Source: Paraspadella gotoi (taxonomy: Eukaryota; Animalia; Chaetognatha). Taken from it: 64,000 bases of DNA. A model generated the notes under the pieces. That model was not told the DNA's origin. It made no database searches and worked only from the letters and a program-made list of their open reading frames with translations. This document shows, in pieces, positions 23,650-55,497 of the stretch (positions are counted from its first letter, which is position 1; every line of letters starts with the position of its first letter). The position numbers and the translations under genes were made by a program. Location of the stretch: assembly GCA_051294375.1 (NCBI GenBank), contig CM119267.1, positions 15,540,105 to 15,604,104 on the forward strand, in the 5' to 3' direction.

Positions 23650-25826
23650 TTACAAATGACTTGTCATTCCACCAGCAGCGACTATCGTCTCTCCAGTGAC
23701 ATACTTTGCATCTTCAGAACACAAAAATGATGCGACTGAAGAAATTTCCTTCGCTTCACCAAACCTTCTCATTGGAATCTGACTCAGGATCATCTTGGAA
23801 ACTTCGTCGTTGTTCCACATTGCTGAACTAAACTTGGTTTTGATGAAGCCAGGAGCGAGGCCATTCACTCGAATGTTATCTTCGGCCACGGCGCTGGCCA
23901 CTACCTTTGTCAACCCCAGAAGGGCTGTTTTGCTGACTGAATACGCACCGAGCATATCCGCAGGAACATAGCCTTACCAACCATCAAACAAAGTTCGATT
24001 AAATATTTAAAAAATCTTAAAGTATAAGGATCGTCGCAATCGCATTAAAAAATTATGGATCCATGACAAACTATCATATTTGATACAGGAAAATTAAGTT
24101 TTATACATAACAAACATGGCTTAATAAATACAAAATAAATAAATAAAAATGAAATGAATGAATAAAACAAAATGAAATGAATAGAATGAAATGAAATAAA
24201 TGTAAATTCATTGAATTTAAATTAATAAAATAATTTGGATAAATAAATTACATTGAGTGAATAAATTTAAAAGTAAGAAAAAAAAGTAAGAACTGAATTA
24301 ATTAATTGAAGAAATTGAATGAATAATTGTGTGAGAGATAATAAAAGGAAAAGATGGTAAAATGATAACATACGCTACTGCGATGCTTAACATCACGAGT
24401 TCGATACTGACATAAAATTAATAAAAAACAGAGAGAGAGAGAGAGAAAGAAATAAAGAAAGTGAGAGAAATAAAGAAAGAGAAAGAGAGTGAGAGAAATA
24501 AAGAAAGAGGGTGAGAGAATGAGATGATTAGAATATATATCTAAATATACAGCTTCATACAAATACAAATAATATTAGAAAACGCGAGCTATAATTTAGA
24601 ACGTCGACGACGACATTTATGGGTACGATCGTCACAAAATCGTCGGAAGCGATTGCGATGATAAAAGGTTTTAAGAAAAAAAAAACAACCTGTGATGGAA
24701 GTAACATAGACGATGCTTCCACCTTTCCGTTTCTTCATGTGTGGAACAACCAGCTGAGTTAACATTAAGGCGGCCTTGACATTAATATCAAAGATTTTGT
24801 CCCATCCTTTTTCGCTGCAATCAATTATTGAACCGATTTCGGGATTAACAGCCGCGTTTGAAACAAGAATATCAACACCTAGCACCAGATTAAAACATCA
24901 ATAACTAATAAAATTCAAAACTCTAAAAAACATACCTCCAAATTTTTTGACAGTGGCATTGATCAAAGCCTCTCGATCTTCTTTCGAGCCAACGTGACAC
25001 TTGACTCCTTCGCACTCAATGCCTCGACCTTTCAATGACTCTATGGCCTTTTCCACATTATCGGCCTTTCTGCTGCTCACCATCACCTATTGTTTATCGA
25101 GCGAATACTATAAGTCTATATATAAAAAAATAATTTACCCCGTGTCCCAACGCGAATGACACAAAGGATATTTATCCTACCTTATAGCATTTCTTATTTA
25201 AATATTTAACTAGTAGACGTTTTTGTTGCATTTCGTTTTTTGTTTCTTTATTACTAAAAATAGATTTTTTCAAAAAATGTTAAAATAAAAAAAGGGGGAA
25301 AAAAAAACAGCGACCAGAAAGAGTAGAATAAAGAGTGTACAATTTAATAAAACGAACATAAAGCCGCCATAAAATAAGGATTCCATTATTGTATGTCGAA
25401 TGGCGATTCATTGAAAGATAAGTAGCTCACATAATGGTCTCATCGATTCTGTAAGAGAATTTTAATAATATGAAAAATACTTTATATTAGTAAATAATGA
25501 GTTATCATTAAATTGTTTTTTAAAAAAGTTTTGAATAAAATAAAAATGTCTTAAAAATTTGTATCTAGATTTCCATCTCATTCGCGATTGAACAAGGGCC
25601 ACAAAAAAGAAGCTTTTACCATTGGTTGGTTGGTTTCTTAACAACCAAGTCTTACTTTGGCTCCATCAAGACCGAGTCGTTCAGCAATGGCCAAACCAAT
25701 TCCATCAGTCGACGCCGTGACGATGGCGATTTTTCCTTTCAACCGATGAGCGGAATGACACATTGACCGAATCAAAGATGATTGCAAACAAAAGTTGCGA
25801 GATACAAATGTTGTAACTTTCAGCAT
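23650..25826 (-). CDS. DHRS4: Dehydrogenase/reductase SDR family member 4, 4 exons
   Basis: [33 protein letters not shown] and C-terminal PTS1-like SHL. Confidence 0.93.
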
Positions 25827-25979: not shown

Positions 25980-26545
25980 GGGATTGATGACATTAAATAT
26001 GCCATAACGTGTTTGGAATGCTTTGACAGCTTTATTAAACCAAACACCTTAAAGTAGCATTGATCAAAGTCTTTTTCAGAGTCAACATGACACTTTACCC
26101 CTTTGCTGTCAATGCTTTCACCTCACCGCATTAATCACATTTGTACTGCTTATCATCACCTATGGTGTAGCAAAGCAACTTTTGGATCATTTCAAATTAG
26201 ATAGTTCTTTTATCACATTAACATACATAGTAACAGTTTAGATTATTTCGCCAATCTCATGATTGATTTTTTTTTCATCTTCTTTAATTAATCTTTATTT
26301 CTGTTATCTTTTTTGTTTATCTGATGAACGAGTGTTTATGTCCATATCTAGTAAATTATATAAAGGTTCTTTATAATCCTACTTTGGCTCCATAAAGACC
26401 AAGCCTTTCGGAAATAGCTAAACCGATACCATCGGTCGACGCCTTAACAACAGCATCTTTTCCCTTTAAGCCTTGAACGGAATGACCGAGAGACCGGATC
26501 AAAGGCGATAGCAAAGTAAAGTTTTGAGACAACAGATTTATGACG
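25980..26545 (-). pseudogene. Degenerate tandem copy of the DHRS4 5' exons
   Basis: 26380-26545 reads ..[29 protein letters not shown]|GT with no ATG. About 26040-26165 is a decayed exon 2 containing indels. Confidence 0.8.
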
Positions 26546-28379: not shown

Positions 28380-31300
28380 TCATTTGAAGACGGCCAAATC
28401 AGCGAAGGCGTCGTCGGCTTTCTTTTGTAAGGAAATTCGTGAAGCTGTCGTCGGACTCATTGTGGGTGGCGGCATAGGCGAGGACGTAACCAAGCCGGAG
28501 AAGGACTGAGCGACTTGGGACGTCGTTGATTGTTGAATTGGTGAACCACTGAACGTCGGCCGGCTGAGGTGAGCCTGAATTAGAAACGGAGACGTATATA
28601 ATCGAAGTTGATCGACGGACGCCCTTGCTGACTTATGCTTAAATCACCTGTGCAACACTGGCAGTTAACGCGTTCATTTGCATCGTATGTTGCTGTTGTT
28701 GTTGCATTTGCGACAATGTAGGGCCACTTTGACCTCGAGGTTGCAGAGTCGAGTGGGGGGATAGGCTGTCCAGGCTTATATTAACAGATCCTGCATCCAG
28801 ATTAAGCAAAGAAGAATACATTGAAAGCATACCAATAATGAGAGAAACCTAGGCTTTACCCAATTTAGTACTATTCCGATTACCTTTAACGTCTGACCAC
28901 GTAGATCCGGTGGCAGATCCGTTTTGACCATTGACGTTAGGCAGCATTAACTTTGCTCCAGTCATGCTTTCAAATGGCACGGACGGTGGGATAGCCTGGC
29001 ATGGCGCGGAATTGTTGTTCAGCTGCATTGGGGGGACGGTTTGCACCGGCTTCGGCGTTCCCATCGCAATTGGAGACAAATTAGCGACGCCAGATGATCC
29101 GCCCATGAAGGTTGACTGGAAAGGAGGAATTACAGCGGTGGTAGCGGCGGTAGTAAAGGATGTGTTGTCGGCGATCGTAACTGGTTCAGTCAGTAGGTCA
29201 AAATTGGCAGTGAAGGTCGAAGGAGTGGTTGACGACCCAGGAATAACAGGCATCGGTGAAGAATTGACAGCGCTATGAAACAAAATAATAAAAATTAGTA
29301 TTCGTTTAATTTTAATTTTTTTAAATTCTAACCTAGTTGAAGCAAAAGCCGAAGAAAAATCTGCGAAATCGTCATTCGACTGAGAAGTAAGGCTAGTAGG
29401 TTCTAAAAAAAAATTAGTGAAAAGATTAGCAAGGACCAAAACTCAACGAAAGACCAACAACGTAAAATAATGGGTCACCTTCGACGAGAGCGGTGGGCGC
29501 GGCAGTCTGGAAGACGGAGAAATCTCCGAAGTCTCCATTGGCGTTGGTGGTGGGATCGACCGCCGCAGAAGCGGCGGTTTTGGGCTGGAGAGGGTTGTGG
29601 TGAGTCGGTGACGGAAGGGACAAGTCCAAAAGATCCGAACCGGAAGTATTTTTGACCGTTGAGGAAACGGAACTGTCGCCGATTTCTTGGTCCAAAATCG
29701 AGGGGGGCGTAATACCATTCACTCCGCCTGGTGATATAACTTGCCCGTTGCCCGTAAATCCATTTAAAATTAAATGACTAATGGAATTTTTTCACTAGGA
29801 ATTCGAATTAATTCCGCCAATCTTATTTTATTCACAGTCCAAACGACTTCTCTCCCTGTTGTCACAAGCGAGATCAACCACGGGTAATCGCGCCAGTTGA
29901 CAAGAGGAGTCACTGAGAGTCGGAAGTCCCTAACGTAAACAGGTGAAATGCACCACCCAGCTGGGTATTGCAGGAAACTCGGCTGTTGCTATGTATGTTT
30001 ATTTTTCACAGAAAATTCGGCGAGCGAGAACTTACCCTTTCCCAGCGAAGATCGAACAGACGTGTGCTTGATCGTTGTTGTCCTTTTCTCCGTCGTCGTC
30101 GTCGTCTTTTTTTCGATCTGTTGCGTCTCCTCGAAGTCGTCGTGGAAATCGGAGCTAGGCGCCCCAACAGCAGGCGAATCGCGAAACTCGAAGTCATCGT
30201 CGTTGTGGTAACCACCGCCCTTAATGCCCCCGGGCGGTGGATCGTCATCGAAGGACTTGTTACGACTTTCCTTCCACATGGTGCCGATCGTGTCCATCGC
30301 CGAGTGGATCTTATCTCCAATCGTTTCCGGCTTCTTTGGGTCCCATGCATCCAAGGAAGAGATACCACCTTCGGGGCCTCCAATGCCCCCGCGCCCGTAA
30401 GGCGCAACGCACGGAGGGCCGACTGAACCACCTTATTTTGGATGAAAAAGTGCAGACGAGAAGTAAAACAAAAAATGGCAACAATATGATTGAATTGATC
30501 CAAAAACAAAGAGACACAAAATGAAAATTGAGGATACAATACATGACTCCCCGCTACAGAAAGACACGAAATGCAAAATGATCTTGAAATCACTCTGTTC
30601 AGTTCCGAAGCGGAAGGTTATAGGAAAATAAGAGGCATATGGTAATGACGAATCACTATGCATGATGTGTCTAACTGAAATCAATTGATTTGACTAAATA
30701 AATATAAAATACAGTAAGCTTAATCCAATAAGTATTAAATATGAATTAGAATCCAACAAAAACACCCTTCAAGAAAAAAATTCGTTTATAGATATATCTC
30801 CATAAGTCTACTGAAATTACCTGTCCTTCTACCATAGGACATGGACCTCATTTCATGGGCTGATTTAAGAGAAGTTAATGGAATCAAAGCTCAGATTAAA
30901 ATTTACATAATGATCGGGGACCGGACTTGAATAGCGCGATTGTATCTTAAAAAGATAATCTCGTTTTATCAAACTGGTTGTCTCACCTGCTAGTCCTATG
31001 TACTTGTCCTTGTTTTTCCTGGCTTTTCGCCTCTCCTCCCGCAGTCGCTCGTCCTCCTGGATAAGTTCGACAAGTTCCTTGCTCTTCTGCCGGATGTTGA
31101 TACCTTGATCTTTACCGAACTCGTCGATGAAGGTGTAAGTCTCGAGGCCACGAAGGTCGTAAAGATGTTCGCGGGCGGACGTGACGACTCGTTCGCTTCC
31201 GTTCTTGATCAAGTAGGCGAGCAGCAGCAGTCCTTTGTACGTTCTGCGCCAATTTTTTCGTTGCTCTTCGAACATTCTGGGATAAGAGGAGAAGAAAATA

Positions 31301-31722
31301 AATCTCGAGACGCAAGACTCAATGAATTGTATATACTGTATTTGTTTGTACCAATTTCACGACATTTTTTGGTTATTTCTAAGACAAAGAGAAAATATTT
31401 TTTCGCATTTACGAAAAGGAAAATGATAAAAACTTGCTTTTGGCTACTTTTCAACCCAAGTTACCTTTTCCATAGCATTCCCATGACTTCAGGGAAATGT
31501 TCGTATTGGTAGGTGTATTGGGCGACTTCTTGCATGAGGCCTCCATGAGGCCCCCATTCGTCATCGTTCGTGGCTTCACGAACTTTTGACTCTACCTAAT
31601 TCAATCATTTAAAAGGGGTAATCTATCATTGTTATTAAGTTTAAAGCATTTCTTTTAAGTACCTCCGTGTAGTTCATGACCACACTGGTCACTTTCTCTT
31701 GTATTTCTCGTATTTTCCACAT
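28380..31722 (-). CDS. CLINT1: Clathrin interactor 1 / epsinR (ENTH domain, multi-exon)
   Basis: MWKIREIQEKVTSVVMNYTE, KVREATNDDEWGP, KNGSERVVTSAREH, DFADF motifs and C-terminal DAFADLAVFK. Confidence 0.95.
29834..29986 (-). ncRNA. Candidate intronic structured RNA, copy B (unassigned family)
   Basis: GC-rich island in CLINT1 intron 29728-30035. About 70% identical by eye to 55109-55257, with a terminal stem ACAGCC/GGACUGU and conserved internal hairpins. Confidence 0.6.
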
Positions 31723-32040
31723 AGTTTCAATATTCTACTCTTTTTGTATCAAAAAGAAGAATATTTGAAATGTTTCAGTTTGATTACACAATCAAGTCAT
31801 CTCCAAGTTTTTGACTAGAGTATTAATTCTGTTTGGTCTGGATTAAATCATATCATCGAAAAAGAAAAATAGCCTTCTAGGATCTAGGTCGATAACTTTT
31901 CAAGAGAGGCCTGTTAAAAAATGTTACCAAACTTCCTTGAATTTTTTTATTTCGGAGTGAAATAACAGCAAAATATCTTTGGCAACAGTTAAAATGCCCA
32001 AAAAGGCCCAAAAAATATTAAATGCATGAATTAACAAGAT

Positions 32041-32546
32041 TTAAAAATCCATAAATTGGGAGACAGATATGTTTATTACTGTCTGAATGAGTATAAGTCC
32101 AGTGAGAACGTCGTTCCATTTCATGGCCGAATCTTTATCATTATCATCGTCCATATCTTTTTGACCAATAATAAGTAAAATAAAAGCAATGACAATCTAC
32201 AAAAAAACAAAATACCATTTTAAAAAAGATTGAAGAAAATACGAAAATAAATTGAAATTTGGTACAAATTTTGTTTCACCTGCAAGCAGATAGAGAGGAT
32301 TACAGCGGCAACAATACCCTGAAAATATGGGTGCTCCTTTTCGGTTCCTTGGTACTTCAGAAGCTGTTTTAGATTACTTATATTCGACGACAACAAAGCT
32401 ATATCAAGAAGACCCTTTGCCAATGTTTTACGTGAATTGTATTGGTTGTTATTAAATAAAATGACTTTGGGCTTGTCGCTTTGATCGTCAGACTTTTTAT
32501 TATCTTCTTCTTCGGTACCGCGTCTTCGAACAACACCGTCGGCCAT
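32041..32546 (-). CDS. Ninjurin, 2 exons
   Basis: NQYNSRKTLAKGLLDIALLSSNISNLKQLL and two hydrophobic helices (ILSICLQIVIAFILL; GLILIQTVINISVSQF). Confidence 0.88.
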
Positions 32547-32679
32547 TTTTAAATGGCTATTGAATTACTATTTAACCTAAAATGAGTCAATCACGACAAA
32601 TTATAATTCGAATTGAATCAATAAGTATTTTTCCCCGTCCCGAGGATGAATTAACAAAATTAATTGGAATTCAAGCTAA

Positions 32680-39461
<6,782 letters not shown>

Positions 39462-39905
39462 AGTCGGATTATTAGTAAAAAAAGATGCTTTTAAAGTTTA
39501 ATATGACTGCAAAGAGGAATGTTGCGTTTGAGCGCTAAGCTATAAACAATTTTCCTTTAAAGCCAACGCTTTTCAAAAAGGAAAAACATGAAAAGAATAA
39601 CAAAAAGGCTGTGTTGAGTGTTCAATTTGAGAATCATCTTGTGAAACTTAAATTTTGAAGCAATAGAAAGCTATAAATGGTCAAAGCTAAAACTAATACC
39701 AACCTTATACCACCGAAAGTTGTCAGCGAGTTTTATCTCGCTTTCTCGCAAACAAATATTCAATTTGAAAACTAATATAACGACATTTTCATTATCGTTC
39801 ACAATGAATTCACATAATGGCGCAGCTTCCTCGCCTCTGACGTCGAGCACGCGGTTCCGCAATGAACGTCTTTCGCTCTTCTTTTACGTGCTGAGACTCT
39901 TCCCT

Positions 39906-42900
39906 CTAAAGACTCATCGACTCTGCCAAAAACGTCCTTAATTCGTTGTAATGAGCAGCTTTGTTACCTGAAGGATAAATAAAATGTTTTTATGAAATAT
40001 CTTCATGTAATTAGAATTATCAAACTTGTAGAATTCAAATTGAAATCAGAGCTCAAACCCGTAGCCGTAGATGGAGAAACGTTCCTGCCAATGTAAGAGA
40101 TCCGGAACTTGTGCTCCACAGCGGTTTCGAAGCGAGGCTGAACGTATGTCCAGGCGCCCATATTTTTGTGCTCTTCCTGAACCCAAGCCACTTTAGCATT
40201 GGGGTATTTCGCGATTTCTGCAATCACGCCATCGTAAGGAAACGGGCAAATTTGCTCGAGACGCGCGATTGCGATGGAGTCGTTGAGTCCTAACGCGGAC
40301 ATCATACCATCATTAAAATTAAGACTAGTAAATATTAAATCGTAAAAGAAAATAACGAGCACTCACCGCGCGTCTCTCTCTCCTTCACCAAGTCGTAGTA
40401 AACTTTTCCGGAACAAAATAATAGTTTCTCGGCAGATTGAGGTTTTTTAGAGGCAAGACCGCCTTCTGGAATGAAGCGGACAAAGTGCGTCCCTGGAAGC
40501 ATATCGTCAAACGATGAGCGGGCGTCCGGGTGGCGTAGTAGGGATTTGGGAGACATGACCACCAGCTGGGTGTTAGGTATCAATCAACGATTTTAAATAA
40601 ATTCTACTTCAACGCAAAACAAAATCTGTGAAAAACCTCACCGGTTTTCGGAACGGCATAGTGACTTGTCTTCTCAAGGCGTGCATGTAGTTAGCTGGAG
40701 TCGTCGGATTAATCACAGACCAGTTGATTTGATGCAGCTGGTGCAAGGCCGCCGTCTCAGAGTCTTTCTCTTTTATCAAGTCTTTGGGAATTACGGCGGG
40801 ATCGTCAGAGGTCATCTGAAGAAAGCGCTCTAGTCTGGCGGAGGAGTGCTCCGGACCCATCCCTGCAATGGTTTGTAAATTAGTATGTATCGCGTCGGTT
40901 CGATTTTATAAATATTTAAGATTACCCTCGTATCCGTGCGGGAGGAGCAAGACCAATCCCGTCTGACGGAACCATTTGGCCTGGCCGGAAGCGATGAACT
41001 GATCGATGATGCATTGTGCAGTGTTGTGAAAATCGCCGAACTGAGCCTCCCATATGACTAGGGCGCAAGGGCTTGTCATGGAGTAACCTAACTCAAACCC
41101 GAGAACTCCGAACTCAGAGAGGGAGCTGTTGACCACCTGGTATTCGGCTATAAATAGAAAAAAATACGGACTTTTTTCCCCAAAATTCCACGATTCTCTT
41201 TTTCGGTCGCTCTTAATTTTGTTCTTCACCTTGATCTGGACTCAAACCGTTGAGAACATTAAGAATACTTTTGTCCTGATTCTGATCATGCAAAACGTGG
41301 TGTCGATGTGAAAAGGTTCCTCTCTCGACATCCTGTCCCGAGAGACGAACGTGGATGCCTTCCTTGAGCAGAGATCCAAAGCCGACAGCTTCGGCCATGG
41401 CCCAATCGACTTTACGACCAACGGCCATATCACCGCGAGCCTGAAAAAAGGGCACAGGGAAAAACCCAACGTTGGTTTTTGAGACATAACTTTAAACAAC
41501 ATCAAGCTCAAATCGATCCCTTCACTAGTAATGACGCTACTCTGAGATTCTCTCTCCAACACTCCTCCTTTCTTCCATACATCCCCGTTTTCTCACTCGC
41601 AGTATCTTCTTGATGCCTGGATGAGGTTTAAAGTTTTCGTCGGATATTGAGGAAAACTTTGAGAGGATGTCGGCGATGTTTTCCTCGGCTATTCCCGTTG
41701 GTTCGTGTTTCATCCGATCTGCTCCTCCATCGACGAAGAAATCATCCCAAGGAGAGTCGAGCCAGTCGCGGGAGTTCATCTGCTTAATGTCCTTTCCCGT
41801 CTCGTAAGATTGCTCGATAATTTCGTCGTATCGCTTCTTCTCCTCGAGAAATTCTTCCTTGTTCAGAACCTTGTCCGCTATCAATTTGTTACTATATTTT
41901 TCCAACGTCGGGACCTGCGCGACGAAATGTTAAAGTTAACTCGAACTTTGATGGATTGTCGTCACGGCTGTGAATTAACCTGATTCCCGATGCGTTTGTA
42001 CATCAGGGGTTGCGTGAACATAGGTTCGTCGATTTCGTTGTGACCGTTTTTACGATAGCTGACGATGTCGATGACAACGTCGCTTCCAAATGTATGACGG
42101 TATTCGGCGGCCACCTTGGGACAATGCGAGGGCGGGGTGAGATTTGATAAGGAAACATTATGAGATACATAACTAATAGGGTGAAAGTGAAAAAGAAAAG
42201 AAGCATAAAGAAAACAATTCTTTACACCAAACTCGATAACTACCTTAGCAACGTAAACCACGGCCTCGGGATCGTCCCCGTTAACGTGGAAAATGGGGGC
42301 GTTAACGACACGTGCCACGTCTGTATTAAGTGATTTACATTGAAATCTCTAGCAATTATTATAATCAACCAAAACACATGGGTGAGGCAAAAACAAACTT
42401 GCCGGTACAATAAGGAGACGATCGGGAAAAGCGCGGATCGGTGGTGAAGCCAATCTGGTTGTTAACGACGACGTGAACGCATCCGTGGGTCGTGTAGGCG
42501 GGTAAGTCGGAAAGATGGAATGTTTCGTATACTATGCCTTGGCCAGAGAAAGCAGCATCGCCATGAAGGAGTAGGGACATTACCTGGAATTATAAAAGAG
42601 AAAATACAAATTGGACATGCAAGAAAATAAAGAAATAATAATTTGCATTGAGAAAAGTTTTATATACGTACAATAAATATAAATAAATAATACAAGAAAT
42701 AATAATAAAAATTCCTACTTTTTTCCCATCTTTGTCTCCACGGAAGTATTGTTCGGCCCGGGTCTTGCCCTGCACGACAGGATCGACAGCCTCCAAGTGC
42801 GAAGGATTGGCCACCACGGATATTTTAATGTTTCGATTGGTCATTCGGTTGTGACGTTCGACCGAAGTACCAAGGTGGTACTTGACATCGCCACAGCCTA

Positions 42901-44479
42901 GAAAGGGGAAAAAGCATAAGTCAAACTAACGACAAAATCTCTCTGACAAAGTCTCCTTTACTCACAAACCTTCCTCATCCGGTTGTAACTCTGAACGGAA
43001 CTGGCTTAAAAGCTTTTCCAAAGGCATTCGAGCCACATTCGATAATACGTTCAACCTCCCCCGGTGAGGCATGCCGACGACAACACTTTCTATGCCCAAA
43101 ATGGAGGACTTATCAATGATGGCCTTAATAAGAAATGAGGAAAATACCGCTGATCGTATGATATGAATTGAGACCGAGGTGGGTATTCAGATATTTAAAA
43201 TACGAGAAGATGATTATTTTTTTCATCTCGTCACGAACCTTTAAAGCAGGAATCAAGACCTCGCATCCTTCAAGACCGAATCTCTTCTCCGATCGAAACT
43301 TTTTTGCCAAGAAGTTCTCAAACTGCGTGGCTCGAATGAGACGTTCCAAAATTAGTTTTCGCTCTTGGTTCGAGAACGTTTGACAATTGGGAGTCTCAAA
43401 CTTCTTCCGAATCCAGTCCACTTTCGCGTGGTCGTTTATAAAGGCGTATTCGCAGCCAATGTGGCCGCAGTAAACAGAGTCCAATCGGTTAATGATTTCC
43501 TGCAGAGACAACGTCTTTTCATCCCCTCCGATGTACGTAGTAGCCGGAAGTCTTGTTGAACGATGAAAGAAAAAAAAGTCAAAACAGGGGGGGGAAAAAT
43601 TACTTTCAAAGGAGGATAACTACGGTAATTTGTAATACTCAATTTGCAATAATGAGGGGACAGGGCTAACCGAAATTTTCTCTGCAAGTCGCCAACGTTG
43701 AGACCGTAACTCCTATAGCTGAGCTCCTCCAGCGCCTCGTTGTTCAAGTCGGCGCTACTGATGCCGAGCGGGTCGAGGTCGGCCATTTTGTGTCCGCGCA
43801 TTTGGTAGGAGCGGATGATAGCTTGTACGGAAAGATGATCATCCACTTCTCGTTGTGCGACCGGAACTGACGAAGGCAAGGACGGCGCAGTCGTCAAAAT
43901 TGACGTGAGGTTCTCCTCGCCTCGGAAAGGAAAAAAAATGAAGGAGTTTATTAGCGTGAATGGACCAAGTTTTCATTTGTCTTTCCATACCCGAGATCGT
44001 TGGCGGACTAACGTAGGCGGTTCCAGGAGATGCCCCGTTGGCCACCTTTTTAAAGTATACGTCCCAAGATTTGTGTACGCTATTGGGATCTATTCGCCAA
44101 GACTCGTACATCTCTTCGATGTAACTCGTCGAACTCCCGCTGAGAAACGGTTCGGCGGCGACGGCGGCAGCAGCCGCAGCAAAATGTTTTGAGTCGCCTG
44201 AGCCAAAAAGAATAGAGCAAATTATTTTTATATTTCAATCAACTGACGCTAAGGCAGATGCCAACCTGAAATCAGCCTTCTTGAACTGACATCCCTCGGG
44301 GCGCCCTCGTGAATGTCTTTGACTAGAAACGAGCTTATTGTTCGTGTAATAGACGACGATTTAGTCGCACACACTGTTCTCGCAGGACTTAAACACAGCG
44401 CCTCAAAGGAGCGGGGTAAACGCTGGGACAGTGATCGACCCTTACCCCTTCTCACCATACCTCTTGCGAGTCTGTACAT
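39906..44479 (-). CDS. OGDH: 2-oxoglutarate dehydrogenase E1, mitochondrial (multi-exon)
   Basis: [79 protein letters not shown] and [12 protein letters not shown]. Confidence 0.97.
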
Positions 44480-45050
44480 CTTGTAAAATGAGGTTTTTAC
44501 GATTGGGACAAAGGGACATGCGTATACAGATATACACAAAAGCAACAAATTCAGGTCCGATCATACATCTGTACAAAAAAAAACAAAAAACCAGGGAATA
44601 AACACAAAAACAGTAAAAGGCTTTTAAAGTAACAAGGCTAGGTTTTGTCGACATTTAGTTTTTAACACTTTAACACTTAAAATTAAAAAAGAAAATATAA
44701 CCAACAACATATATATATGTATATAAAATAAACGAATTCTAAACTTGCCAGATGAAAATGTACAAAGCGAATAAAAACGGAAAATGTCCCTAACATACAT
44801 GTATGTTTGTATATGATCGCGGTTCCCAAAAGCTTGTATATTCTGGAAATTATCTTGAATAAATTTACTAGATGGCTTTTAAATCTTAGGTTCCCCTTAA
44901 AAAGTTCAACCCGACGCAAATACCGCCAATACAATATGGCGTGAGAAGCGGAAAGGAGGAAATAACTCTAAAGGAGTTGGTCTTTATTTTTGACCACTAA
45001 TCAGTTCTACTTTTTCACTTCACCATACTCAAAAATTTATAGGAAAACAA

Positions 45051-46979
45051 TCACTGCAACCTAGGTGTAGATAATTCGTTGTCCTTCTTAGACTCCGGTG
45101 CGGGCAGACCCCGAGTGGAAGAGGTGACCGAGGGCCAAAGGAAAGGGCTGCATCCCGAGTTTCCGAGAAGGTCATCCAGAGCAATGGGCGTTCTCGGGTC
45201 GGTGGTAATGGGCCCATCAGGCATAAAAAGATTAAGAAGATCGGAGGGATCCATGTTGAGATCCGGTGATTGGGCGACGAGCATGTCCTTGATTGAGTCC
45301 AGTCCGGCGTCGACGTTATCAATCTGTTTGCTGAGAGAGCGTGCCAACCCGCGCGGGGATGGGGATTCCGCGGGACGCTGGTTCTGCTTGGCATCCTCGA
45401 CGTCTTCATCGTCGGCTACGCCGGACAAAAGAACGGCGGCGCCAAGAGGATCAGTTCTGCCAACAATCGAACGCGAATCCAGTTTGTCCGCCTCCTTGCG
45501 CTGGTCCAGCATGACCGGAAATTGTGAGATGAAATCGGTGAGCGTAGGAGTGTCGATGATTTCAGGAGTCTCTCCAGTCTCGGCGGCCTTGGAGACTCCG
45601 ACAGTGTGGGGCTCAGGCATTGACGTCTTCAAGAGCGGGAGATTTTTGGAGGCCGGGTGTCGGCCGGACCCGACGCTCGTCTTGAGGTTTTCGAGTCCCG
45701 GTTTCACCGAGTGATTCGCCGGAGATTTTTGGGATTTGGACGAAGAGGCGGGACTGGGCACAGAATGGATGCTCATTGCCGGCGACGGGGCCGCTCTAGG
45801 CTCGGCAGGGGAATCGGCGGGAGTGATAATCGGCATTGACTCTTCGGGCTTCGATCTTAACCCCGAATTGACGACGTAAGCGACGGCGTTGGGGTTGACC
45901 ATAGGTATCGTCGCGGGCGCGATCGCCACTTGAGGCACAGTTGGCCCTGTAGATACGCCGGCAGTTTGCATTAGAAGCACAGTGGAGCCATCTTCCGCCA
46001 ATGCCGTCGCGAAAGTAGGATGCGCGGATGCATGATGCATAGTGACAGGAGGTGGAACGGTAGGAGCGAGTCCACTGCCGAGCGTGGCTTTGGACGTCGA
46101 CGCGCCAGCTTGACCGTTAGAGGCGACAGAAGCCTCGTAAACCTCTAATGGGATTTCCCGGATTATGGGTCCTGTTTGCACCTCGGGCGAATCAAAAACG
46201 TCCTCAATGACTTCCAACGCCTTGTCGATGCTCGCGCTGGTTGTCGTCCCTTCAGTCGCGGCTCGTTTCGGCGCCTGGTCGATCATCAGAGCAGGCAACT
46301 TTCGTTTGCCGAGAGATATCGAGCCCCTCGGCCGACTAGTCGAACCGGAGACATTCGGCATGACAGAATGAACTATGAACTGAAGCAACTTGTGCGTTAC
46401 TTGTTGTTGCTTCAAGTGCTTTTGTCGCTGAGCCGCGAGTTCTTGCCAAAGAGTTCCGTTTTCTCTCTTTATGTGCAGCAATTGTTCATTGACGACGTCC
46501 TGTGTGGCTTGCAGCATTTTCAAACTCATCTCGAGGTTCTCTACCTTTTCCTCCATGTTGGCGCGCTCAATTAGAGCGTCCTGCTGCATTACGGCTACAG
46601 AGTTGTTAGAGTTGGGCTGAGCTACTTTGCGCTTGATTAGAGGCAGCATCTCGGGATGACCACGGACGAAAAAGTGATGCTGAAACTCCATATCCTCCCG
46701 GTCGACTTTAAGTCCACCCTGTTCGATGTTCAACACCTTGCGAAAGCCGTACATGTTGAGTTGACGGACGAAGGAAGAGAGATTGGAGTGCTTAAAGAAT
46801 AGCGGAAGAATTTCTTTCGCGAAGCGGGCGTGGTCGAAGAGGTGGAAGCTTCGACCGTCCACGCCCCAATTGATCAACTCGTTCGTTGCCTCGTCATCCA
46901 CCAGCGCCCACAACTTGGCGACGAAGGCTGGAACGCTGCCCGAGCCAGAGAAGTTTGGGTCAGGATCTGCCGACGTCAT
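45051..46979 (-). CDS. HSF1: Heat shock transcription factor, single long exon
   Basis: VPAFVAKLW..FKHSNLSSFVRQLNMYGFRK DNA-binding domain, HR-A/B RENGTLWQELAAQRQKH and an HR-C-like segment. Confidence 0.93.
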   Translation of the reverse strand: MTSADPDPNFSGSGSVPAFVAKLWALVDDEATNELINWGVDGRSFHLFDHARFAKEILPLFFKHSNLSSFVRQLNMYGFRKVLNIEQGGLKVDREDMEFQHHFFVRGHPEMLPLIKRKVAQPNSNNSVAVMQQDALIERANMEEKVENLEMSLKMLQATQDVVNEQLLHIKRENGTLWQELAAQRQKHLKQQQVTHKLLQFIVHSVMPNVSGSTSRPRGSISLGKRKLPALMIDQAPKRAATEGTTTSASIDKALEVIEDVFDSPEVQTGPIIREIPLEVYEASVASNGQAGASTSKATLGSGLAPTVPPPVTMHHASAHPTFATALAEDGSTVLLMQTAGVSTGPTVPQVAIAPATIPMVNPNAVAYVVNSGLRSKPEESMPIITPADSPAEPRAAPSPAMSIHSVPSPASSSKSQKSPANHSVKPGLENLKTSVGSGRHPASKNLPLLKTSMPEPHTVGVSKAAETGETPEIIDTPTLTDFISQFPVMLDQRKEADKLDSRSIVGRTDPLGAAVLLSGVADDEDVEDAKQNQRPAESPSPRGLARSLSKQIDNVDAGLDSIKDMLVAQSPDLNMDPSDLLNLFMPDGPITTDPRTPIALDDLLGNSGCSPFLWPSVTSSTRGLPAPESKKDNELSTPRLQ

Positions 46980-47198
46980 CGCTATAAAAAGCGACGCGAT
47001 GCGACGCGACGCGACGCGATCTCTTCACTTGGTTATTTTTTGGGTTGTATTTATTTTTCCAAAAACTGTCGTAATAAATAATAAACAAATCATTAACGAA
47101 CTAAAAAAAATAAATTACTTTAGTCTTATTTTACAAACGAAATGGGCAAAATAATAAAAATCTCTTCGAAACTTATGAGTACGACATAAGGTACAGAT

Positions 47199-49398
47199 TC
47201 ACTCCACGGAAAGATCCTCGAGATATTCGCCGGATTTAATCTTGTTGGGAGACATTTGCGACACGGCGCGCGCGAGATCGTCGTTGGAAATGGGTCGAAG
47301 ACTTTCCGCATTAACGGCTTCGCTGTTATCGGTAATCGAATTCCACCGCCAATCGCCGGCCCCGCCGCTTGAACGAAGAAATTCCCGGACCCGATACACC
47401 GCCGCGTTGCGACAAAGTTCCTGGAAAAGAAACATTTGAAAAAAGTTGAAGGCGAAGCCGAAGGAAACAAAAAAAAATCAATAATAACAAAAGGACGACC
47501 CCTCAAAATCTTCAATTTCGCCATCGAATTCGAAATCTTCAATTTCGCCATTTTAAAATTACCTTGAGGTCGGACCCTGAAAACCGGTCAGTCAACTTTG
47601 CCAGGGATTTGAGATCGACGTTATCATCGACATCTTCGTCTTCCAGAATAATCTTGAGAATGGAGAGACGTTGGTTGGCATTCGGCATTCCAATATAAAA
47701 CTTCAATGGCATGCGACGCATTATAGCCTCATCGAGGTCGGAAGGTCGATTTGTAGCACCTTTGGATAAATATGAAATTAAAAATTAAACGAATACCCAT
47801 GTAAAACGCATAAACTTGAACTGGTAAATTCAAGGTGTAAGTGGAACAGACTGATGGAGAAACAGACAGACCGTTAGACCGAAAAGTGACATATTTATAA
47901 AGTTGATTCGCGAGTACTCGCGGCGCAACTAAAAAGATAAATAAACGTTAATAGTGCCCAAAATAGTCCGTACCCATAATTATTACTCTACAGGAAAAAG
48001 TGTCAGTAGAGAGGCCATCCCAATGACTCATGAACTGCGTCTTCATCATCGCCGTGGCTTCGTGATCGGTAGCGTTTCGTCCTCGAAGTATGGAATCCAT
48101 CTCGTCGATGAAAATTATGGTTGGCTGAATCTATGAATTGAAAAAATCAATAAGTGTCATCAGTAAATTGATTTAGGGCTTAATTTAAATATAAAAACAA
48201 CCTAATGAGAAACAATTCTTAATTATCAAGTCAGAACTGATTACAATAATAAACATCAAACCATACGAAAATTGATGAAGCGAACTGAGAAAAAACAAAT
48301 AAATCGACACACCTTTAATGCTAAGCTAAACAAAGCTTCGACTCGTTTTTGGGATTCCCCGTACCATTTGTCCAACAAGGAAGACAAATTTATATTGAGA
48401 AAACGAGCACCTGAAAAAAAAAATACAAAAACAAAACTGAACTTGCACAAATTTGATGATTGATGAAACTCACCGGCTTCTTTGGCAGTCGCCTTCGCAA
48501 TCATGGTCTTGCCACACCCTGGTGGTCCATAAAGGAGCACCCCTTTTGGAGGCTGATGAGGTAAAATAAGAAAAACCCGCTCATGACATGTAACAAATGT
48601 TTAAAGTTTGTTCAGTGAACAATGTACAATGTACATTGTACATATTAGATATCTGAGTTCGTAGTGTAAACTGATGATAAAGGAGAGAAAATATGAGCGC
48701 TTTACCTGAAGCAACTTTGACTTTTTGAAAAGTCGCTCGTTTTTCAAGGGCAGAATGACGGTTTCTCCCAACTCTTCGATGACTTCGTCGAGGCCACCGA
48801 CGTCTTCGAAGCCAACTCGGATCGAGGATGGGTTGACGAGGTTTGACGCCAGGGCCAATTCCAGCTCGTTTAATTTGACGTCCTGTAACATAGATCGTAA
48901 TGGAATAAACGTTTTATTAAAAAGAAAACAATGAATGAAAGACGATAATTTGATACAGTAGGGACTTACCTTGATACCGATCTGATTCAAGAGTCTATCG
49001 GCCCGGTTCTGAGCCTCTTCTTTTTCTTTAGAGGTAGGATCCATGGCATCGACGGCCCATTGGAGGAGCCGCTTGGCGATCCACATGGTTAAACCCAAGA
49101 AGAGCATGTTGTGAACGAGACGAATCCCAAAATCCTTAAGCAGTTCCTTAGTTTCGGACAAATCCTCTTGTACAGGAACAAGGGCGTTGTTGGCTGTGAC
49201 GGCGTGAAGAGGGGGAGCGGGAAGCGGCGGCAAATCTGGTGGTCGACCGACTGTGATTGTCATATCGGAACCGGAAGGTCGGACGCTCGGATCCACGACA
49301 CCCGCAGCGGTTCCGGCCACAGTCGTGGAACTTCCGCGCAAGAGCCATGAAGCTAAAGCTTTTTTAAAGCCGGAGATAAAGTCTAGAGCGGCTTGCAT
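47199..49398 (-). CDS. ATAD1: AAA ATPase ATAD1/Msp1 (multi-exon)
   Basis: TM segment followed by [61 protein letters not shown] and FSGSDLKELCR. Confidence 0.95.
47800..47934. mobile_element. Helentron/HINE-like terminal fragment in an ATAD1 intron
   Basis: (ACAG)n-like tract, palindrome CGCGAGTACTCGCG and terminal GCAACTAAAA. Same family as 3671-3700. Confidence 0.5.
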
Positions 49399-49536
49399 GG
49401 CTCGTGACGGGGGAGTTTCAAAACGTAAAGCTTAATGCTAATGATAACTTTTATGAAAATAATGCAAACAAATATTTAAAAAAATTGTTACCATGTAAAT
49501 AGCTAGAAAATTACGACAATTGCAAAATCATTCGTC

Positions 49537-51152
49537 TCATAATTTGCGTGGAATAGTGAACGTCTTAAAATCCTCAGCCAATTCGATCTTGAGCAATTTT
49601 TCGTCAACGCACTGTCGAGCATCCAACAATAATCGTTCAACGGTTTCACTTTCGGACACGTCCTTGTCCTGACCGTCAACGTCATTCTCCAGAGGTCGAT
49701 ACCGCTGACTGAAATGGGTTAGAATCAAGAATTTGGTTCTGACGTCGAGAGCGAATTTAGCGGCCATCGCGGGCGTAGAATGACCGTGATCTACGGCTTG
49801 GTCTTGGAGGGCGTTCTCCAAAGTGGCCTCGTGAACCACGACGTCGGCATCGCAGGCAAAAGGCGCTAGAAGGCGATTGTCGCTGGTATCGCCTAGCACG
49901 ACTAACTTCGTGCCTTGAAAGAAATAAAATGTTAAAAAACAAAAAACACAATTCAACACTATCATTATGCATTCCCAATCCTTCCTTTACCTTTCCTTCT
50001 CGGCCCGAGAGCCTCGGCCGGAGTAATCAGCGAGCCGTCGGGACATGCGACAGTTTCTCCAGATTTTAGGAGGCCATAGATGGGTCCCGGATTTAACCCC
50101 CTGGCCTTAAGCAAGTTAGTGTCCAAACGGCCAGGTTGTTCGGCTTCTTGCACCACGAAGCCGAGAGAAAAGATACGGTGGCGAAGAGGAGAAGCTGTGA
50201 CGCGTGGAAATTTTGACCCAGGCGTTAAGAGCACAGAAGTATCAGTCTGGAAGAATTAAAGATTAAAAGAAAGCCGCTGAATAAACAATAATGGGAGCTA
50301 GAAATCACCACCTCGATCTAAAATTAAGAAAAGTTTCAATGTAAACAACTTTTACCGAAAAACTAAAAATCCGACCTCTCTCCTCATTAGGAAGTAGAGG
50401 GATCTCCAATCCGAGAACGGGTTGGACGCATTTCAGGAGGGGATCAATTTCTCTCGTTACGTCGCCCGATGGAAACCCTTCCTCCCCCCGATCGAATGAT
50501 TCGAAGCGCTCTTTACAGTCGTCGAGAATCTCATGAACGACGTACGGGAACATCAACGCCGACCCAGAGATCGCCAAGTTCGTGGCCAAGTAGTTGCGTA
50601 GACCTTTTTAGGATCCGGAAGCGCCGATTATCAACGGATTTCTACGTATTCGCTGATCTGTTAGGGATCTCCTCGTCGACCCACCTCGCCACGTTTGTCT
50701 TTATTTCGGCTATGCCGGATAGATTTCGTGGCAAGAGGGGCGGAAAAGTCAGCATTTCACTTGAAATTAAGGATTTACCCCGAGGACCGAATAGTTCTAA
50801 GGGGGTCCTGGCGCTTCCTTTTTCAACTTCTTCCCGCTTTTGTTGGGAGAGAGTGCAGAGAAACCCAGGAAGACCAAAAAGGTGATCACCGTGAAGATGA
50901 GTGATAAATATTTTGGTCACTCTCGCAGCCTGAAAATGAGATAAATTCATATTTGCTTAATTTTGGATAAATCGTAAAACTATCTCCATCTTACACTACC
51001 TTTAGCGGGCTTTTCATCAGCTGCGTTTGACTCCCCTCTCCGCAGTCAAAAAGCCAAACGTCGCCGGAATCGCGATACCGGACGCCAAGACAAGAGACGC
51101 CGCGAGATGGCGTCGGGTTGCATGACGCAGTCCCAAGGAATATCAACTCCAT
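49537..51152 (-). CDS. ELAC1: Short-form RNase Z (multi-exon)
   Basis: [68 protein letters not shown] and LTHFSQRY. Confidence 0.93.
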
Positions 51153-51342
51153 GAATTTTTTCAAAAAATAGAGGCTCAAGGCATGGATTGTATTAGTTTC
51201 ATGAGCTAAAATAAAACAAAACCGTGAGCGCTTTTCGAATTTTTTCGAATGATCGAGTTATTAGAAAAACAAATCGACAAAAAAGCGCCCGGATGGTAAA
51301 ACAGCAACTTGAAAACGTTTTTATCACAGAAAACATTATCGC

Positions 51343-52692
51343 TCATCGTCTTTGTTTCGAGATCTTCTTCGCTTCCCTTTTTTTCTTGCTCACTTTCTCC
51401 AAGTGACGCCGAATCTCCTGTTCTTCCTCCTTGTCCAATTCTTCTTCCCTGCCACGAGCAGTCGTCTCCAGGGATTCCGTCTCGCTGTTCTTGATGGTTG
51501 CGCGCTGCAGGGCGGCGATCTGTCGCAAGAGGCGCTCGTTACGCTGTCGCACGGATAACTCGGAGGAGGAGTCGACGTCCCCTCCCTCTTCGGCGACGGC
51601 TTCGTTGTCTCGTTCCTGCAACATGACAGAATGACGCTTGGTTTTTCCACGCAGCAGAGCGGCCTTAAAAAGACGGAGGTAGAGGCGGATGGCAGTAACA
51701 GAGTCGTCGTTTCCGGGGATCGGAAATGTAATCTAGAAGAAAAAGGTACAAATCTTACAATATACAAACAATATTTAAGAGGGATACCTCTGGCATACCA
51801 GTCTGGGGTCGGCGTCTGAATCGCAAATACCAACAGAGGGTATGAGCATCTTGGCCGCGTGCTTCACGGCCGTGTGCTCCTCGAACACAGTTGTTTTGGT
51901 CGACAAGAAAATGCACAGATCGGGATGTCGAATCACATCACCAAAAAAACTGGTTGAGTTGGTCAGAGTCCCGATGTACCATTCTACGAGGGAAAAAAAT
52001 AAATGCAAAACGCCGTCAAAACGATGTTAATTCAGTTGTTACGCACCCTTTGTGTGGGCGTACTCCCCACATTCGATAGCGGTCTTCTCCACTAGATGGG
52101 TCGTCTCCCGATGATTAGTGATGAATAAGACTATACCGCCACGAAATGCAATGTGGGCGATAAAATTGAGAGCGTCTCTAAGAAGAACGACTGCAAAAAT
52201 AGTGCAAGAACGTGTTAAATCCGTACTAAGAACGGATTTGGGCTTTAAAAAGGACGTACCGGTGTGGTTCAGGTCAAAAATGCAAGTTTCGAATCTGTGT
52301 CCCAAGAGGTATTCGACCATGGGATCATAACCCATTCCCCGCTTGTGTCCGTAATGCACGCCCGCTTCAAAAAGCTCTTTCAAGTCCACCAATCGATAAA
52401 CGTCGAAATAATCGTCGTCTCGAAGCGAAGCCACCAAAGCTTCTTTCGACGGTTCACGTATCAAAGGTTGAGGTAATGGAGTCGACGCGTTCGACGAAGA
52501 GGTAACTGGTGTCAAAGGCGATAAAGATGAGGAATCGTCTCGTATCTCGACCGCAAACTGACAAGAAGAAGGCGAGAAGAAGCGAGGAACAGCGGAGGTG
52601 GCAATGCGAAGATCCTTCGAAAAAACCTGGGCCTCTCGACACGAGCGAGATAAACAGGCGCCAAGAGTTCGAGAAAATGTTCGTAAAGCCAT
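51343..52692 (-). CDS. MRPS2: Mitochondrial ribosomal protein S2 (multi-exon)
   Basis: Presequence, LFEAGVHYGH, ALNFIAHIAFRGGIVLF, GICDSDADPRL|ITFPIPGNDDS. Confidence 0.92.
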
Positions 52693-52754
52693 AATTTGAG
52701 AACTAAAAAACATTATTGGATTCAATGAGATAGGGATACAGGGAAAACAAAAAA

Positions 52755-55497
52755 CTAAATGAGCCCTTTAGACTCGTTTTTCCCACGCGCATCCTGAAGG
52801 CGAAGAAAAGTTTCCTTATCTAAAGACTTCATTCCCGAAACGATGGCATCGACCTTCGCTTCTGCTTCTTCCTTTAACTGTTCCAAACGGAATAATCCGT
52901 CAACGTGCATGAGCATCCGGTTGAAATCAACGAGCCGCTTTGACGCCATCGCCCACTCCGCCGCTTTTGATTCTTTTTTAGCCTTTCGCCGCAAAAATTC
53001 TGCGGCGTCAAAACCGAGATACTCGACGCAGACGGCGTCGCTGATGCGGACGGCAAAAGTCGAGGCGCCATCGCAGATTTTCACGTCGATGTGAAATCCG
53101 GTGACCGGATCCGAACGAAACTTACCCAAAAAAGTTACTATGAAGCATTTGCACCAAAAAGGGGTAGAGTCTGAAGCACGGGCGCGAAATTCCGCGAGAT
53201 AGCTGAAGGGTCTCGCCCGAGATTCGTCACTGAGGCATTTCGTGATAGGCGACGAAACGTTCAAGTCGTCATTACGAAGATCGAACGCGTTTAAAGATAA
53301 GGGCGTTGTCGTTTCGACCATCGACTTTTCCTCCAACTTCGACCTTTTATACGCTTCAGATTTTCGACAATCTTCCGACTTGCGTTTTTCGGCGACCGAC
53401 GGCGGCCGCCCCGAGACACTGGAAAAAACGATGGCTTCGTCGTCGCCCAAGGAGAGATCGTGTTGAAAAGCGGAGGGAGGGCGATTTGGCGACCAGGGAC
53501 GCGATCTTTCTGACGCAGGATCCACTGGATCCAATTTAATGGCATTTGACGATTCCGCGCTGGGACTTTTTTTTGAAGTTGATGATTTAGCAGCGATGGC
53601 CCCCGCGGCCGCGATCAAGGCACCCCTCGAAGAACCCAACGTCGATAGTTTTACTGGCGAAGTGGAGACTTTAATTTGTCCAGTTCTGCTGATGTCCAAC
53701 TCACCTGAAAAATTATGTAGTCTCATCGAAGTTGAGACAACTTGTTGAGTGTTAGGATGAAAGCTAAGAGTTGTCTCAATACGCGGCAAAGGTTCCTGGT
53801 CGGAAATGTCGACCGCACCGGGATCTTCCTCCTGTTTTTCGATGGCTTCTATTTTCCGGAAAAAATCATCGTCGGGTGGGAGATCGTCGCCAAAGTCGTC
53901 GTCGTTTAAATCGTCTCCTGATGACGCGCTTTGAGACACCCCAAACATTTCATTGAGTACGGCACGGTGTTGCGTGGGAGTCGGGGGAGTTATAGGCATA
54001 CGCCTCGCGGTACGTACGGAAGGGGATTCCACGGCCTCGATTTTCACAGTCGATTCTCTTTTAATGGCTTTTCGATTGGGGATGACTGGAGTATGTCGGG
54101 GTTCATCCCTGCTTTGGCTCGTGGACTGCCTTGGCTCCAAACGTTCGTCTGGAGCGTCTGTACCCACGTTTAAAAAATCTCCTAGAGGCTCCCTTTTCTC
54201 GCGCCGATCTTCAGTCGTCGTTCCCCGAAGATTGGGAAAACGCTTGCGAAGTTCGTCGGGACGCAATTTTATTCTTTTGGCGAGTACATCGATTAAAGTT
54301 TTGTCCTCCGCAGTTGAGTCAAGGTCTCCTCCGAGGACCTGAAGGTTGCTGTCGGTAAGGAAAAGAGTGCCTCCGCGGACAATGGGAACGGGACCGACCA
54401 GATAAAGCTTCGTTCCAGGAGGCATCTAGGAAAACGTTTATATAAACATTTAACTACGACCTACGCGCCTGACGTAAAATGAAAGATTAACCTTATCATG
54501 CAGTTTGCTCAGCGGTTTCCATTCCATGCCAAAAACGGAGTGTACTCCGTCGTGAAGCTCAAACTTCATCATACGTTTCTTTTTCGGCTCCCATGCAGCC
54601 TGGAATCTTTCCGGGAAGGCAGATACTTCGGAGTTTTCATTTTCTGAACCCGATGCCTGCGTTTCCAGTAAAGAAAATTAGAGATCAAGCTACTTTTTTA
54701 ACCGGGTGGCGTTTCGACCTTCAACAACTGTCCGTAGGCAGGCGCAGCTACATCTACAATCCACTCCAGTTGAACCGCGTATTTTCCATCATCCAATTGC
54801 ATTCGCCTCCCAGGATCACGTTCCTAAAAACACATAGGTTAAATGATGTGTTTGCAAATTAAGCCGTCAATCAGCAATACAGTACTTCTTGCAAAGTTAA
54901 AGAAGGTGGTAATGATGAGGCTCCAATCTCTTTCAAGTCAGCATGCAGCCATTGTTGATAAACTTCATCCTTAATCTCTTGAACCTATGATTTCAAACGA
55001 TAACTTTTCATGGGACGAAGGGAAAGGTATAGTCTATACTGTGGCGGTATATTCAGTCCGCCTTACATCCACCATCGTTCAGCCAATCCCAAGTGTTGCA
55101 TTCCATCTACAGTCCTAACGACTTCCCTCTGCGTTGGCAAAGCGAGACCGTCCTAGGGAACAGCGTCAGTGAAAGGAGTTGTCACTGAGGGTCGTAAGCC
55201 CTCAAAGCCAACAATGAGATGCTCCATCCCAATGGGCATCACAGGCGACCCGGCTGTAGCCATAATACTATAGATCTTTTTTTCTCACTTTTTGGTACGG
55301 TAAAGAATCTATCCTCTCTTGCAAGTTCTGTTCTTCAACGACGAATTCCGTGCACGCCAAAACCCAATCGGCTGAAACGAAATAACTTATAACATTTGTT
55401 CGGCAAAAAAACTATAATAAATAAACTTACCGGAAACAAAGATATGTTTTTGACGTAACCAGCTTTCAACGCTATGCCTTAGAGTCTGCATAGTCAT
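52755..55497 (-). CDS. RMI1: RecQ-mediated genome instability protein 1 (multi-exon)
   Basis: VYQQWLHADLKEIG, KRMMKFELHDG..GME, PPGTKLYLVGPV..GTLFL..VLGG and a C-terminal OB fold (PFSYL..DVKICDGAS). Confidence 0.88.
55109..55257 (-). ncRNA. Candidate intronic structured RNA, copy A (unassigned family)
   Basis: GC-rich island in RMI1 intron 54985-55288, homologous to 29834-29986. Hairpins GAGGG/CCCUC, CAGUGA/UCACUG and GCUGUUC/GGACGGU, and stem UGUUGGC/GCCAACG. Confidence 0.6.

Follow-up and report, generated by a model that had tools for sequence, protein, structure and literature searches.

A low-copy intronic repeat family, possibly MITE-like, in the CLINT1 and RMI1 genes of Paraspadella gotoi

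We analyzed a 64,000-nt stretch of the genome of the chaetognath Paraspadella gotoi (hereafter the window; GenBank assembly GCA_051294375.1, contig CM119267.1, positions 15,540,105 to 15,604,104), in which introns of the unrelated genes CLINT1 and RMI1 each hold a copy of the same element. The element is a real, low-copy family that is uncatalogued, in that it matches none of the Rfam families with which it was compared; a 154–158-nt GC-rich unit with self-complementary ends represents this one family in both introns. We consider the chances about even that it is a low-copy, non-autonomous mobile repeat resembling MITEs (miniature inverted-repeat transposable elements), whose copies drift and are spliced out with the intron. 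The homology, the sharp ends, the terminal stem, the sense intronic position, the multiplicity and, for the CLINT1 intron, its removal in a single contig are observed. Coordinates are positions in the window, and both copies are read on the minus strand, copy A being the one in the CLINT1 intron and copy B the one in the RMI1 intron.

Two intronic copies and their wider family

Copy A occupies positions 29832–29989 and copy B positions 55107–55260 (158 and 154 nt, respectively, between flanking 3-bp direct repeats), with cores at 29834–29986 and 55109–55257; B is the better-folding copy. These cores had been aligned end to end by eye, at about 70%, in an earlier reading of the sequence (the original prediction), and blastn within the window bears the alignment out, giving 71.9% identity over 153 columns (E 3e-14). 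The local alignment score is 122 for A versus B and 18.7 ± 3.2 for shuffled sequences, and the homology of the two stretches is genuine. Widened by 6 bases per side, the alignment has 165 columns with 27 transitions, 18 transversions and four gaps, each of a single base and all in copy B; the substitutions are spread evenly, without clustering (runs p 0.39). The GC content of the cores is 52% and 56%, compared with 27–44% for the remainder of the host introns. No third copy was found within the window by nhmmer or by a covariance model run with its filters off, for which the next best score was 9.2 bits against 196 and 185 for the two copies. A coding exon was rejected on account of the four single-base gaps and of stops. 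The observed/expected CpG ratio is 1.29 for the whole window, so that methylation-driven CpG loss is not indicated, and 0.77 and 0.65 in the two elements.

The identity of the hosts proposed in the original prediction is supported by protein matches and domains. Matches to CLINT1 (clathrin interactor 1) span 28383–31722 on the minus strand and include an ENTH domain; most named top matches are annotated as clathrin interactor 1 or ENTH-domain protein, and two JGI proteins are 91–93% identical to the product across the ENTH domain. RMI1 is located at 52755–55491 on the minus strand, with a start codon at 55491 placed by eye, and Pfam RMI1 domains were found in four of the five RMI1 exon pieces scanned. 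Both copies are sense to their host gene, and their cores begin 49 nt (A) and 31 nt (B) past the donor, within the predicted 30–50 nt. The CLINT1 host intron (29728–30035, minus strand, phase 1) is 308 nt long, and one contig of run X9, a set of same-species contigs that we guess to be RNA, omits exactly these 308 nt with GT–AG ends (contig joint 29726–30035). The RMI1 host intron, the second of the gene (54985–55288, minus strand, GT–AG, phase 0), measures 304 nt as placed from the reading frame only. Both lengths agree with those first given. The accompanying statement that they lie far above the local norm holds against six of the eight other introns measured in the two genes (46, 59, 59, 65, 67 and 76 nt) and fails against CLINT1 introns of about 185 and 555 nt, three of the eight boundaries measured being inexact by a few bases; because of the two longer CLINT1 introns, the host introns are long for the region, not unique.

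In X9, which we treat as a probable RNA run, no contig was seen inside the CLINT1 host intron and no element transcript was seen, and such contigs are incapable of proving absence. In run X10 of organism B, no contig matched the element. A further X9 contig, over 30404–30500, extends into the 555-nt CLINT1 intron (30431–30985), and may reflect a retained intron, an alternative acceptor or DNA.

Additional copies were sought by placing two same-species DNA runs, X3 and X5, on copy A at 80% likeness; the counts derive from 26 listed pieces out of 141 and are lower bounds, and the contigs may include alleles. At least three non-self contigs cover the element in X3, at 29911–29992 (14 differences), 29911–29989 (15) and 29938–29988 (8), and at least four in X5, namely the same three and one at 29904–29941. 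The summed X5 depth of 136, as compared with about 78 from the listed pieces, leaves room by our arithmetic for about two more contigs, and loose contig ends at 29898 and 29933 represent a B-like yet distinct sequence. The three longer pieces are not B itself, as each differs from B at 29952 and the longest exact run shared by A and B is 9 nt; the pieces of 51–82 nt are gap-free. In a seed-and-extend simulation with assumed seeds of 15 to 10 nt, recovery was 26–75% at 72% identity and 7–30% at 65%. From this simulation and the contig counts, we estimate that the family probably numbers between roughly ten and a few tens of copies and falls short of hundreds. The dispersed, multiple occurrence that characterizes MITEs is present in low number, and there is no sign of the hundreds of close copies that the original prediction had named as contrary evidence.

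Relatives beyond this species were not found in pattern scans of viral, prokaryotic, phage and metagenome collections, in which exact patterns miss diverged relatives and animals are few. The viral scans returned 0, 3, 3 and 20 loci, the GTDB scans 0 and 6, the phages one 25-nt chance match, and the metagenomes none with the strict pattern and, for the flanking CLINT1 exon, none of 272 candidates. The 32 retrieved pattern loci were rejected as relatives, since by nhmmer and blastn they share only the pattern words, with a best covariance-model E of 0.25. Six exact motifs of 14–16 letters had no occurrence in searchable papers, and topic literature searches turned up no published description of this element, supplements lying outside both searches.

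Element ends and a candidate insertion mechanism

Both copies are closed by a terminal stem, ACAG-CC/GG-A-CUGU, whose 5' arm lies at 29981–29986 in A and 55252–55257 in B and whose 3' arm lies at 29834–29840 and 55109–55115, respectively. The stem, as originally drawn, has a pair probability of 0.96 and 0.97 in the two copies, and it pairs the AG at the 5' end of the element, a possible cryptic acceptor, with the GU at its 3' end, a possible cryptic donor. Just outside the stem, in the same register in both copies, stand copy-specific 3-bp direct repeats that are candidate target-site duplications: ATA at 29990–29992 (5') and 29829–29831 (3') around A, and ATG at 55261–55263 (5') and 55104–55106 (3') around B. 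In copy B the direct repeat can be lengthened to 4 bp and encloses an inverted repeat of 6 perfectly matched bp (CTACAG/CTGTAG), and the inverted repeat of copy A consists of 4 bp plus CC/GG beyond the bulge. The original statement that no target duplications or terminal inverted repeats occur thus needs amendment, in that both copies have a candidate for each: a terminal inverted repeat that is short and imperfect, and the 3-bp direct repeat, which was identified post hoc. Shuffled flanks match the direct-repeat pattern in 1–6% of 4000 trials depending on search width, corresponding to p 0.01–0.06 for a pattern found post hoc in two copies only.

The homology ends at the terminal stem, and the whole 3' flanks of A and B are unrelated (p 0.37–0.50). 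A whole-intron mobile element (introner) is therefore rejected, only a short 5' flank being weakly similar. A Tc1-type TA duplication was also rejected, since it fits B only and the paralogs share bases upstream of CAG, as was a short interspersed nuclear element (SINE), in view of the lack of RNA polymerase III (Pol III) boxes, the overall unrelated 3' flanks and a longest same-register direct repeat of 3 bp. The word GATTGGC-GAA occurs in both 3' flanks, at chance level when unanchored (p 0.43).

On the mobile-repeat reading, a trans-acting enzyme would have spread copies of an ancestral fold-back unit to new sites, and each insertion would leave a 3-bp target duplication, ATA in CLINT1 and ATG in RMI1. 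Copies in short introns may be tolerated, presumably as neutral insertions, since splicing removes them together with the intron and since the element's own AG and GU are paired away, the terminal stem possibly masking both. What folding remains would be a legacy of the ancestor, to which B may be close and from which A may have decayed. This reading gains support from the low copy number at several loci, the ends at the stem and the copy-specific direct repeats, and from other inverted-repeat elements in the window. The two adjoin each other and look like non-autonomous DNA transposons: an AT-rich 698-nt fold-back at 35082–35779 with 173-nt arms at 81%, and an AT-rich 1.64-kb element at 35790–37431 whose arms, about 183 nt long, match at 88%.

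RNA structure and alternative readings

The inner part of the element contains a small hairpin with a 3-nt loop (29946–29958, minus strand), which is better kept than any other inner helix when A, B and the partial paralogs are compared, and a middle strand, CGAC-Y-CUC (29915–29922, minus strand), which most paralog contigs span and which can pair either with a 5' strand (29980–29976) or with the 3' strand GAGR-GAA-GUCG (29854–29844, minus strand), its partner in the long-range helix originally proposed. The only shared helix favoured in both copies is the terminal stem, the remaining ones being favoured in one copy only. Folding z-scores are –1.58 for A and –2.15 for B (6 of 200 shuffles fold as well as B), and the folding energy of B is –56.9, versus –48.2 for its opposite strand.

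Our structure tests cover pseudoknot-free folds of the two full copies, with gap-free simulated sequences. The structure conservation index (SCI) of A and B is 0.44, which matches neutral simulations (0.46–0.47 ± 0.08); simulations rejecting 70% of pair-breaking changes give 0.63, with 2–3% at or below 0.45, and those under full pair constraint give 0.90–0.93. On these two copies, structure conservation does not go beyond the neutral expectation, and the claim that the differences preserve pairing is not confirmed. The consensus energy is unremarkable (p 0.47 and 0.31), as are the helix and compensatory counts when the same columns are mutated (p 0.14 and 0.21). No near-optimal fold is common to A and B, and imposing either shared fold costs 16.6–23.4 kcal/mol in A and 8.3–15.7 kcal/mol in B. 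The hairpins GCUGUUC/GGACGGU and GAUUACC, once taken as equivalent, differ in register between the copies, and the UGUU/AAC stem has a 4-bp core common to both and no double changes. Of the predicted compensatory CGAC/GUCG helix there stands one clean covariation, the lone one in the element, from U–A to C–G at 29918; it fits the helix with the 5' strand (29980–29976) equally well, and the two helices are mutually exclusive. The neutral-level SCI, the even substitutions (27 transitions, 18 transversions), the lack of a common fold and the lack of RNA-class boxes support the mobile-repeat reading, and two diverged copies of a fold-back ancestor may look compensatory by eye.

The partial paralogs lean weakly toward kept structure. 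Of six change events in the 29958–29946 hairpin, five either lie in its loop or leave the pairing intact (chance about 0.14; by hand, with variants linked by depth), and in the B-like paralog four of the 30 visible letters differ from B, all four fitting the fold of B (chance about 0.18; by hand). These observations bear on a less probable but serious alternative, in which the element is a box-less, intron-hosted small RNA family whose members would be freed from the excised intron, cut back as far as the terminal stem and able to move between hosts, much as intronic snoRNAs or the intron-embedded RNase P RNA are. In its likely fold the terminal stem would enclose four hairpins, a long 5' one and three short ones; B-like copies would be active and A a decaying pseudogene. 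The paralog hairpin changes, the sense orientation in both of the two copies, the similar intron lengths and positions, the intact ends, the few gaps, the low copy number and the better folding of B than of its shuffles and opposite strand are all consistent with it. A neutral-level SCI is compatible with it, since one decayed copy would yield the same result: a single such copy suffices to flatten a two-sequence structure test (PMC11234323), and intron-embedded RNAs hopping between recipient genes are known (PMC4287351). Opposed to it are the two full copies without a common fold or significant covariation, the unclustered conserved bases, the missing protein-binding box of any known class, the missing Rfam match and one paralog that breaks the best hairpin by three adjacent changes. 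A more specific proposal, a new class of animal RNA of about 160 nt, box-less and intron-hosted, with a terminal stem, a middle strand switching between its 5' and 3' partners and a small hopping family of active copies and pseudogenes, is less likely than not.

The searches for known RNA families agree with the absence of boxes. Rfam gave no match at the gathering cut-off over the whole window and nothing over either element at E ≤ 10 in 601-nt scans; in further scans at E ≤ 10, a mir-880 match in A was dismissed as chance (11.9 bits against a cut-off of 80) and B gave none. A known small nucleolar or Cajal body-specific RNA (snoRNA or scaRNA), which would have contradicted the original prediction, is thus not indicated by Rfam for either copy. 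ARAGORN found no tRNA, and tRNA, 5S and signal recognition particle (SRP) RNA had no Rfam match at E ≤ 10. Motif scans found no Pol III boxes on the sense strand (one A-like match on the other strand is unshared), no RUGAUGA and a CUGA only inside B for C/D boxes, no ANANNA in element B and no common ACA near the 3' end for H/ACA boxes, and no Cajal body (CAB) or Sm motif common to A and B, in line with the earlier statement that C/D, H/ACA and tRNA boxes are not shared. Resemblances to tRNA, Alu, TPP riboswitch and group I RNAs were rejected, being without Rfam support and with the defining motifs missing or misordered. RNase P/MRP RNA was rejected as well, as one CR-I-like word near the 3' end has its possible partner upstream, in the wrong order, and Rfam gave no match. 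Plus-strand T runs, T5 at 30002–30006 and T7 at 55277–55283, lie 15–20 nt past the element cores in both copies; an antisense Pol III transcript, for which the runs at 30002 and 55277 are present, was rejected since the boxes are not shared.

Two further readings have little support. It is very unlikely that the element is a ribozyme that cleaves itself, be it HDV-like or a new class, deposited in introns by a retroelement. The order of 5' strand, UGUU, middle strand, hairpin and AAC recalls the P1–P2 crossing of HDV-like ribozymes, one of which resides in a CPEB3 intron (PMC13635239). However, a relaxed HDV descriptor found no fold in intron A, two near-identical, implausible folds extending outside the element in intron B, and none on the opposite strands. 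A P3/L3 common to both copies and a catalytic C-N-R-A linker are missing, neither a hammerhead nor a twister core nor an Rfam ribozyme match was found, and X9 shows normal joining across the CLINT1 intron. Similarly improbable is a structure-gated poison exon, in which opening of the terminal stem would lead to inclusion of the AG-to-GU stretch (29836–29982 and 55111–55253; 147 and 143 nt), introducing a premature stop. The stem pairs precisely the AG and the GU, inclusion would bring in-frame stops into both genes, and both copies are sense; yet any inverted repeat beginning with ACAG yields such a pattern, the upstream introns would be 53 and 35 nt long when the shortest measured neighbour is 46, there is no pyrimidine tract, X9 shows skipping only, in CLINT1, and the hosts have no obvious common pathway. 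Of the unassigned intronic non-coding RNA, ribozyme or switch family first proposed, the non-coding, uncatalogued, multi-locus and intronic nature is supported, but a conserved functional structure, a ribozyme or a switch is not, given the lack of a common fold, the neutral-level covariation and the lack of clustering.

Several observations weigh against the favoured reading, that of a MITE-like repeat. At about 6 bp the terminal repeat is short, its bulge being retained in both copies, and the ends and the duplication are not known to match any DNA-transposon superfamily (TA, TWA, TTAA or 8-bp). The direct repeats were identified post hoc. Only four single-base gaps stand against 45 substitutions and, together with the gap-free paralog pieces, they suggest a length constraint. 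Both copies are sense and near the donor in introns of almost equal length, and the element (52–56% GC) is unlike its AT-rich inverted-repeat neighbours. The 5' flanks are weakly similar (p 0.005–0.02) and the first 30–45 nt of the 3' flanks marginally so (p 0.03–0.12), which leaves the true ends uncertain by several bases; paralog pieces extend to 29988–29992, so that on its 5' side the element may reach past the proposed duplication. In addition, the helix and compensatory counts reach p 0.03 and 0.04 when random columns serve as the null. The box-less RNA alternative stays in contention because the inverted repeat is very short and bulged, gaps are few, and the two copies agree in strand, position and intron size. 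As a drifting repeat, the element would simply add to the small mobile elements specific to single lineages and be useful mainly for annotating this genome; as a working RNA, it would represent an intron-processed class of animal RNA without a known snoRNA, small nuclear RNA, Pol III or ribozyme signature.

Neighbouring features and comparison with known systems

The genome is gene-dense. An AT-rich direct repeat of about 400–550 nt occupies 1682–2232 and 4000–4608, with blocks 86–96% identical and 2.3–2.5 kb apart. On the minus strand, a short-chain dehydrogenase gene, DHRS4-like, has duplicated first exons (25650–25802 and 26377–26529, and 24952–25030 and 26053–26123; 72–75%), of which the upstream copy looks degenerate, as a partial tandem duplicate or an alternative start. 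A heat shock factor gene at 45051–47024 (minus strand) is a single uninterrupted open reading frame amid intron-rich neighbours; its best named matches, 46–54% identical, are from amphioxus, molluscs and fish, and it is possibly a retrogene or a case of intron loss.

Intronic C/D and H/ACA snoRNAs and scaRNAs are sense, intronic RNAs of about 150 nt with a terminal stem and with paralogs in unrelated hosts. The element resembles them in strand, intronic location, length, terminal stem and unrelated hosts, but its copies have none of the C, D, H, ACA and CAB boxes in common, and Rfam gives no match. By eye, its first 40 nt may resemble a shortened Alu 5' domain. With the 7SL-derived SINE1 heads (Alu monomers and hagfish SINE1-1) it shares a length of about 150 nt (PMC7245038); it differs from them in its low copy number and in lacking boxes A and B, an SRP match at E ≤ 10, a long target duplication and an A-tail common to the copies. 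HDV-like ribozymes such as that of CPEB3 are comparable in the intronic location and the possible crossing of two helices, whereas the element has no shared P3/L3, no P1.1 context and no catalytic cytosine in a J4/2 linker (PMC13635239).

Among structured RNAs that hop from one recipient gene to another, the nearest precedent is the RNase P RNA embedded in introns of insects and crustaceans; it is likewise structured, without Pol III signals and present as several copies in different recipient introns (PMC4287351). By comparison, the element is half its length or less and has no family match and no common fold, and its GAGRGAAGUC look-alike is without a downstream partner strand. As compared with MITEs, its inverted repeat of about 6 bp is bulged and much shorter than usual, its copy number is low and it has no known autonomous partner, but it is like them in being short, non-coding, dispersed and intronic, with self-complementary ends and a candidate short target duplication.

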